Shown: positions 3,997-4,056 of the stretch, piece by piece
How the letters are laid out: every line of letters begins with the position of its first letter
Position numbering within the stretch: the first letter of the stretch is position 1
Source of the DNA: Eledone cirrhosa
Lineage: Eukaryota
Assembly (NCBI GenBank): GCA_964016885.1
Contig: OZ024753.1
Coordinates: 45,012,001 to 45,076,000, forward strand
DNA: 64,000 nucleotides
Direction of reading: 5' to 3'
The notes under the pieces: generated by a model
The model's input: the letters and a program-made list of their open reading frames with translations, nothing else
Told to the model about the DNA's origin: nothing
The model's database searches: none
Made by a program: the position numbers and the translations under genes

Positions 3997-3997
<1 letters not shown>

Positions 3998-4056
3998 CTG
4001 CCTGATGAGGTCATAGCCATTCAATGGCTATCATTGAAATATATATATATAGCAGT
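3997..4056 (+). ncRNA. Type I hammerhead ribozyme motif, complete (second family)
   Basis: Stem I ACTGC/GCAGT; CTGATGA 4002-4008; long stem II with ATAGCCAT/ATGGCTAT; GAAA 4036-4039; self-complementary (TA)n stem III; cleavage triplet ATA 4049-4051. Confidence 0.75.

Follow-up and report, generated by a model that had tools for sequence, protein, structure and literature searches.

The hammerhead motif at positions 3997–4056 (+) of the 64,000-nucleotide stretch of Eledone cirrhosa DNA analysed here (the window) is interpreted, with a probability of about 0.8, as the predicted hammerhead ribozyme of a Hydra-clade Penelope-like element (PLE), of which a 5'-truncated end fragment resides in a TA microsatellite; stem III of the ribozyme, normally fixed as (TA)4, likely slipped to (TA)6 after insertion in the course of neutral decay. 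The motif is real but ordinary, i.e. one decayed copy of a known class, and its altered stem III suggests decay, not a regulatory switch.

The hammerhead motif and its surroundings in the window

All parts of the motif named in a preliminary description of this DNA were located at the positions given there. Stem I, 5 bp long and open-ended, is formed by ACTGC (3997–4001) and GCAGT (4052–4056, also recovered by genome-wide flank matches); its complementarity extends to homologous copies, the five pairs being invariant across the two families A and B described below. The catalytic box CTGATGA (CUGAUGA in RNA, CUGAAGA in family B) occupies 4002–4008 and is followed by stem-loop II with a TCA loop (4009–4035) and the second catalytic box GAAA (4036–4039), the A4039 of which is position 15.1. 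Stem II comprises 12 positions, namely G-U, G-U, U-A, a C/C mismatch and an 8-bp perfect helix ATAGCCAT/ATGGCTAT; the G10.1-C11.1 pair of family A is G-U in the window copy (U4035). The spacer between GAAA and GCAGT reads (TA)6 (4040–4051, with U16.1 at 4050) where (TA)4 is the norm in family A. Stem III is thereby the palindrome A(TA)5T plus H17 (A4051; together 4039–4051), with an AUA triplet and a predicted cut after 4051. It is self-complementary, as had been claimed, and affords 4 bp in the window copy vs only 2 bp in the (TA)4 form. An AATAAA directly 3' of the ribozyme (4058–4063, +) is present in families A and B.

The order of elements is that of type I hammerheads (CUGANGA ... GAAA ... 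NUH), and the core is invariant in the A/B alignment except for N7. For the three helices around the core, 97 % of alignment cells are paired vs 10–48 % in slid controls. The window contains 13 instances of a loose core pattern vs a mean of 2.2 in shuffled sequence, and the 25-nt 3' flank has 3,289 matches in the 3.0-Gb genome (reversed control, 0); by this excess over shuffles and the multiplicity of the flank, the motif is beyond chance. The stability of the 73-nt region is unremarkable (z = -1.25), the hammerhead is not its minimum-energy fold, and an Rfam search of the window at the gathering score yielded zero matches.

The motif lies within a 107-bp fragment (3995–4101, +) representing the 5'-truncated 3' end, i.e. 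a fragment of the pLTR, of a family A element; positions 3995–4100 are 91.5 % identical (blastn) to the 3' end of the full-length copy L150. On both sides the fragment is bordered by the (TA)n tract that served as target (3966–3996 and 4102–4171, both delineated by TRF). The last TA of the 5' tract (3995–3996) also fits the element sequence and constitutes a microhomology; family A copies read ...GACTAACTGC at the place of this tract. Truncation occurred just 5' of stem I, and the upstream pLTR is absent. Two changes are private to the window copy, C11.1>U and (TA)4>(TA)6. Since C is near-universal at position 11.1 in family A (C 97, A 2 and T 1 among the first 100 copies), U11.1 probably reflects decay of this copy at a CpG; it is not certainly disabling, as U is frequent at this position in family B (U 69 and C 30 among the first 100 copies). 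Immediately downstream, positions 4174–4328 contain the fold-back end of a third (TA)n-inserted repeat (GACCCCGACGGCTGAGCTC...GTTTCGACGG), which recurs beside many of the fetched loci.

A neighbouring hammerhead at 3575–3623 (+) has a stem III of ACAG/CTGT, in agreement with published Hydra rows, and a GUA triplet. It is accompanied by an inverted arm just upstream, arose from a separate insertion and has 7,717 exact matches in the genome. Alignment confirmed that the two motifs share only the core boxes at the DNA level. The further proposal that they are unrelated and independent holds insofar as the neighbour belongs to another Penelope-like family and inserted separately; the reverse transcriptase (RT) of its element, found at the expected place in 2 of 30 loci (L242 and L250), is, however, 39–43 % identical to those of families A and B. 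Judged by these proteins, the two hammerheads are cousins with a common target, not unrelated inventions. The neighbour's family has three insertions in the window (3434–3628, 41352–41374 and 45315–45366) and forms at least two head-to-head inverted pairs; its genome-wide strand excess (4,992 vs 2,725) hints at a tandem array somewhere. A hammerhead-like core at 59599–59622 represents another family; its stem II pairs GGGC perfectly with GCCC, its stem III is a minimal ACGT, and a C run follows. Other hammerhead families, with 6-nt palindromic stem III of ACTT/AAGT or ACTAGT type, adjoin elements at L152:654, L161:5698, L154:5581 and L160:6136.

Element families A, B and C

Copies of family A share a 3' end, GTCAC followed by (TA)n, while their 5' ends vary. 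A second 3' end lies ~75 nt beyond the first (137 exact matches to the tail junction). Long copies extend upstream into an ORF for RT plus GIY-YIG endonuclease, and tail-bearing copies continue downstream into the start of the ORF. The loci L148 and L150 display the complete layout pLTR-ORF-pLTR, with pLTR ends of the family flanking the ORF at about 1,130 and 5,300; each locus contains two same-strand hammerhead regions separated by about 4.2 kb. In L148 the ribozyme is damaged in both regions, and the N-terminus of the protein is missing. ORFs of 847 and 894 aa encode RT followed by GIY-YIG in a single frame and contain the motifs YRDD, DKT, CxCx5C, GIY-YIG, CxxC and CxH and no GxKF/Y; RWK is present in family B (L153), whereas the family A copy L150 has WRA instead. 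The Pfam GIY-YIG match has an E-value of 0.001–0.008, below the curated cut-off, and the RT domain was recognised neither by Pfam on the full ORFs nor by a PDB sequence search; its identity is deduced from the motifs and from a resemblance, judged by eye, to published Hydra proteins. Diagnostics of the Hydra clade listed by Craig et al. (2021, PMC8557442) are DKT, RWK, lack of GxKF/Y, a CxCx5C linker, and CxxC plus CxH around E and N. The copies show Penelope-like hallmarks (pLTRs from partial tandem arrangement, inverted 5'-truncated copies and a one-sided tail), and insertion into (TA)n was found across the family A copies examined. From motifs, target and protein comparison, family A is assigned to the Hydra clade of Penelope-like elements. 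The initial designation as a Penelope-type hammerhead is borne out by the long copies, which carry the RT plus GIY-YIG ORF with Hydra-clade motifs.

Two other origins of the motif were considered and rejected. A non-LTR retrozyme would consist of tandem non-coding units of 170–400 nt, each with a hammerhead; the window holds a single truncated copy, the long relatives of which encode an ORF. Stem III as the mere target-site junction of two separate pieces does not agree with the co-occurrence of both flanks in 3,262 copies. In three contig runs on L150, the listed loose ends match the 5' truncation hotspot (see below) and the two 3' ends; these runs represent at most one sample, possibly not independent of the assembly, and are uninformative on expression and cleavage.

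Family B was reached by protein search, its protein being 56 % identical to that of family A. Stem I and (TA)4 of its ribozyme are identical to those of family A, but stem II differs and contains one pair that is compensatory between the families (U-A/C-G). The sole clear match between the ~1.3-kb 3' non-coding regions of A and B is the 67-nt ribozyme. Several loci of family B (L151–L156) contain uninterrupted ORFs of 814–894 aa and near-identical 3' ends, the mark of a young family, with U11.1 in the majority. In the window, a short palindrome at 50939–51032 matches the 3' terminus of family B, but this match includes TA sequence. The more distant family C, which likewise inserts in (TA)n, has an 8-nt stem III, ACATGTGT, able to self-pair with G-U pairs, and a GUC triplet. 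What the three families conserve is an 8-nt helix complementary to itself, reading (TA)4 in the A/B lineage.

Stem III length, timing of slippage and predicted folding

The length statistics leave aside the first DNA search, the query of which favoured U11.1 copies. Family A comprises 3,262 copies with a spacer of 2–14 nt between GAAA and GCAGT. The spacer measures 8 nt in 96 of the first 100 copies and in about 95 % overall. Longer spacers (9–14 nt) number 147 genome-wide; among the first 100 of these, the length is 10 nt in 81, 12 nt in 12, 14 nt in 2 and odd in 5. Shorter spacers (0–7 nt) were counted in 32 copies, using a search anchor 2 nt longer. Eleven exact matches contain (TA)8 or more; in four of them (TA)8 is followed by an intact 3' part, and the other seven end there. 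In family B, 204 of 7,259 copies (2.8 %) have longer spacers. The proposed expandable TA microsatellite is thus real in that slipped lengths exist (147 of 3,262), whereas its expandability is not a general trait: 8 nt is fixed in about 95 % of family A, and family B has the same (TA)4.

Where one arm of an inverted pair is expanded, the partner is unexpanded in 12 of 16 cases (11 of 13 in family B, 1 of 3 in family A). Within family B, divergence is higher in the C11.1 than in the U11.1 subfamily (mean pairwise value 8.5 % vs 4.9 %; 24 and 30 of 58 loci, respectively, after three truncated loci and one with A were dropped), and C11.1 accounts for 61 of the first 100 expanded vs 30 of the first 100 unselected copies (p = 2e-5, hand counts). 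In family A, the divergence of expanded and (TA)4 copies does not differ (2.6 % vs 2.4 %; p = 0.83). Trees were built from 51 of 60 A loci and 45 of 52 B loci, leaving out truncated loci, second arms and stem III itself; in these 51 + 45 rows, with short alignments and weak support, no expanded clade was found. The label "expanded" needs 13 changes on the A tree vs 17.3 in shuffles, and 15 vs 14.6 on the B tree. The slight clustering in family A (10 of 500 shuffles as low) may come from 5' truncation status in the aligned flank. One-arm expansions, scatter over the trees and the excess in the diverged subfamily together suggest that most slips occurred after insertion. Both arms are expanded in 4 of the 16 inverted pairs (L075, L164, L190/191 and L228/229), and the tandem pair L165 has (TA)5 twice. 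Since four of 16 exceeds expectation for independent slippage at 3–4.5 %, some expansions arose before or during insertion, or were propagated by conversion or duplication. Like the equal divergence in family A and the slight clustering of its tree, this speaks against an exclusively post-insertion origin. From these comparisons, most slips appear to have happened separately and late, with a minority being shared owing to insertion itself or to conversion.

The predicted free energy of the stem III hairpin alone in natural copies from (TA)4 to (TA)8 is +4.7, +3.6, +2.3, +1.2 and -0.1 kcal/mol, and that of the stem III self-duplex -3.2, -5.6, -8.0, -10.4 and -12.8 kcal/mol; per TA unit, the self-duplex gains about twice as much as the hairpin. 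The predicted probability of a closed three-way junction in a single RNA is 0.0009 for (TA)4, 0.007 for (TA)5, 0.025 for (TA)7 and 0.028 for (TA)8 in C11.1 copies, and 0.006 (<1 %) for the window copy. An alternative helix between GAUGA of the core and UCAUC competes with this structure in family A. These energies leave out tertiary contacts and Mg2+. Slippage is accordingly predicted to aid the monomer only modestly and the dimer helix more. Lengthening of helix III is a known route from double- to single-hammerhead activity (PMC6466107; PMC4209133, as far as these sources were available), and in PLE motifs lengthened helices were described to give only low activity in vitro (PMC4209133).

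With respect to the use of the cut site, a long TA tract is joined to the predicted cut in 10 junctions vs 432 at the main 5' hotspot. Copies beginning at stem III include L045, L098, L107 and L126, and 3' ends within stem III are represented by the seven matches with (TA)8 or more mentioned above. The hotspot of 5' truncation in family A (L150:1001–1002, ATATGTCCC) involves four nucleotides of microhomology and lies ~110 nt upstream of the predicted cut; its 432 exact junctions far exceed the use of the 8-nt TA microhomology in stem III. In the inverted insertions L075, L105 and L164, the fold-back point coincides with, or is close to, the stem II loop, so that stem II may promote template switching or snap-back. 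The rarity of ends at the cut site suggests that insertions were made mostly from RNA spanning it. This agrees with the PAc element, for which unprocessed RNA is reported as the dominant template and cleavage as protein-assisted (PMC11167929).

Interpretation and comparison with known systems

For active elements and their copies, the following steps are inferred. In active elements, the 2-bp all-A-U stem III would be too weak to close alone, so that cleavage would need a second hammerhead, providing an 8-bp AUAUAUAU duplex, or the element's protein. This dimer dependence of (TA)4 is an assumption, because efficient cleavage is reported for invertebrate retrozyme hammerheads whose helix III has 2 bp (PMC7229834). 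Inserted DNA would be copied mostly from uncut RNA, with reverse transcription probably initiated ~50 or ~125 nt 3' of the cut site. The palindrome would be held at 8 nt by selection on source elements, while dead copies drift.

The preliminary description went further and proposed that slippage could turn a dimer-dependent ribozyme into a monomeric one. Its physical premise survives, as predicted junction closure does rise with TA units, from 0.0009 at (TA)4 to 0.028 at (TA)8; at the length of the window copy, however, the (TA)6 hairpin is at +2.3 and the duplex at -8.0 kcal/mol, the junction closes in less than 1 %, and no expanded subfamily was found in the trees. That slippage is a working switch from dimer-dependent to monomer-active ribozyme, used by elements or host, is therefore improbable, notwithstanding natural copies ranging from (TA)1 to (TA)8, the single-hammerhead activity known to come with longer stem III (PMC6466107; PMC4209133), the ratio of expansions to contractions in family A of about 4.6 to 1, and the expansion common to both arms in 4 of 16 inverted pairs. 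It is opposed by the trees, in which no expanded lineage was found, by retention of the 8-nt length in 95–97 % of both families, by a hairpin that is unfavourable on its own up to (TA)7 while the self-duplex gains about twice per unit, by the competing GAUGA/UCAUC fold and, for the window copy, by the missing upstream pLTR and U11.1. Based on these predictions and counts, such a switch is regarded as physically possible, but genomically unsupported.

Two further explanations concern the (TA)4 sequence itself. If it were kept as a mimic of the (TA)n target, the cleaved (UA)4 RNA end could prime reverse transcription, or the repeat could offer microhomology for 5' joining. The identity of stem III with the insertion target and the few copies that end (7 matches) or begin (10 matches) there would fit, yet such ends are rare vs about 3,300 copies and the 432 hotspot junctions, family C targets (TA)n despite a different stem III, and unprocessed RNA was the dominant template in a PLE tested elsewhere (PMC11167929), which renders target mimicry very improbable. 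Even less credible is a family-wide non-functional relic, in which (TA)4 would be just A-T-rich sequence: the non-hammerhead minimum-energy fold, the zero Rfam matches and AUA in family A vs GUH in 28 of 28 published Hydra rows agree with it, but conservation between the 3' regions of the two families A and B is confined to the 67-nt motif, the core and stem I of which are invariant, and stem II carries a compensatory change. Post-insertion slippage of a decaying PLE fragment hence remains the preferred reading.

A more specific form of selection is conceivable, though doubtful: active elements may be kept at exactly (TA)4, since a slipped, monomer-competent ribozyme would cut its own template and block transposition. 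If so, families A and B, with more than 10,000 copies between them, would form a natural ladder from (TA)1 to (TA)8 for mapping the dimer-to-monomer threshold, would provide genomic evidence that Penelope hammerheads must stay conditional, and some expanded dead copies within host transcripts would be new self-cleavage sites. The stem III length series offers a cheap test of whether PLE hammerheads must be dimer- or protein-dependent to spread. The all-A-U stem III and the AUA triplet are new to the Hydra table, being absent from its published rows. A search of the supplement of Craig et al. (2021) for the string GAAA(TA)4 gave a single, unrelated match, and literature titles and abstracts, a scope outside of which subscription journals and Repbase lie, contained no description of a slipping or microsatellite stem III.

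Among known systems, family A most resembles the Hydra clade (Hydra-1_Obim, Penelope-1_HM and Penelope-1_SK; available part of PMC8557442), with which it shares RT followed by GIY-YIG, the motifs DKT, CxCx5C, CxxC and CxH (RWK being present in family B) and (TA)n insertion, as well as a type I hammerhead near the 3' end with a stem I of 4–5 bp and a self-complementary stem III of ~8–10 nt. It differs from the same source in its pure ATATATAT stem III, with U15.2-A16.2 and AUA, where all 28 published Hydra rows have AC...GU and GUH; in its unit of ~4.2 kb with an ORF of about 850–890 aa including a low-complexity insert, where Hydra elements are described as <3 kb; and in a ribozyme sequence distinct from that of Hydra-1_Obim. 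Like the minimal hammerheads of metazoan PLEs, as described in the accessible part of Cervera and De la Pena (2014, PMC4209133), the family has a short helix I, a long helix II, G10.1-C11.1 (family A, with G-U in the window copy) and a palindromic helix III predicted to act as dimer, and is present mostly as single truncated genomic copies; in contrast to these, A9 directly adjoins position 10.1, the C/C mismatch in stem II is conserved, and the palindrome is a dinucleotide run slipping in 3–4.5 % of copies. Two fixed 3' ends past the ribozyme (the "tail") and copies that cross the cut site are shared with the PAc Poseidon hammerhead of Anolis, as far as described by Frangieh et al. (2024, PMC11167929); PAc belongs to another PLE clade, and protein-assisted cleavage was shown there.
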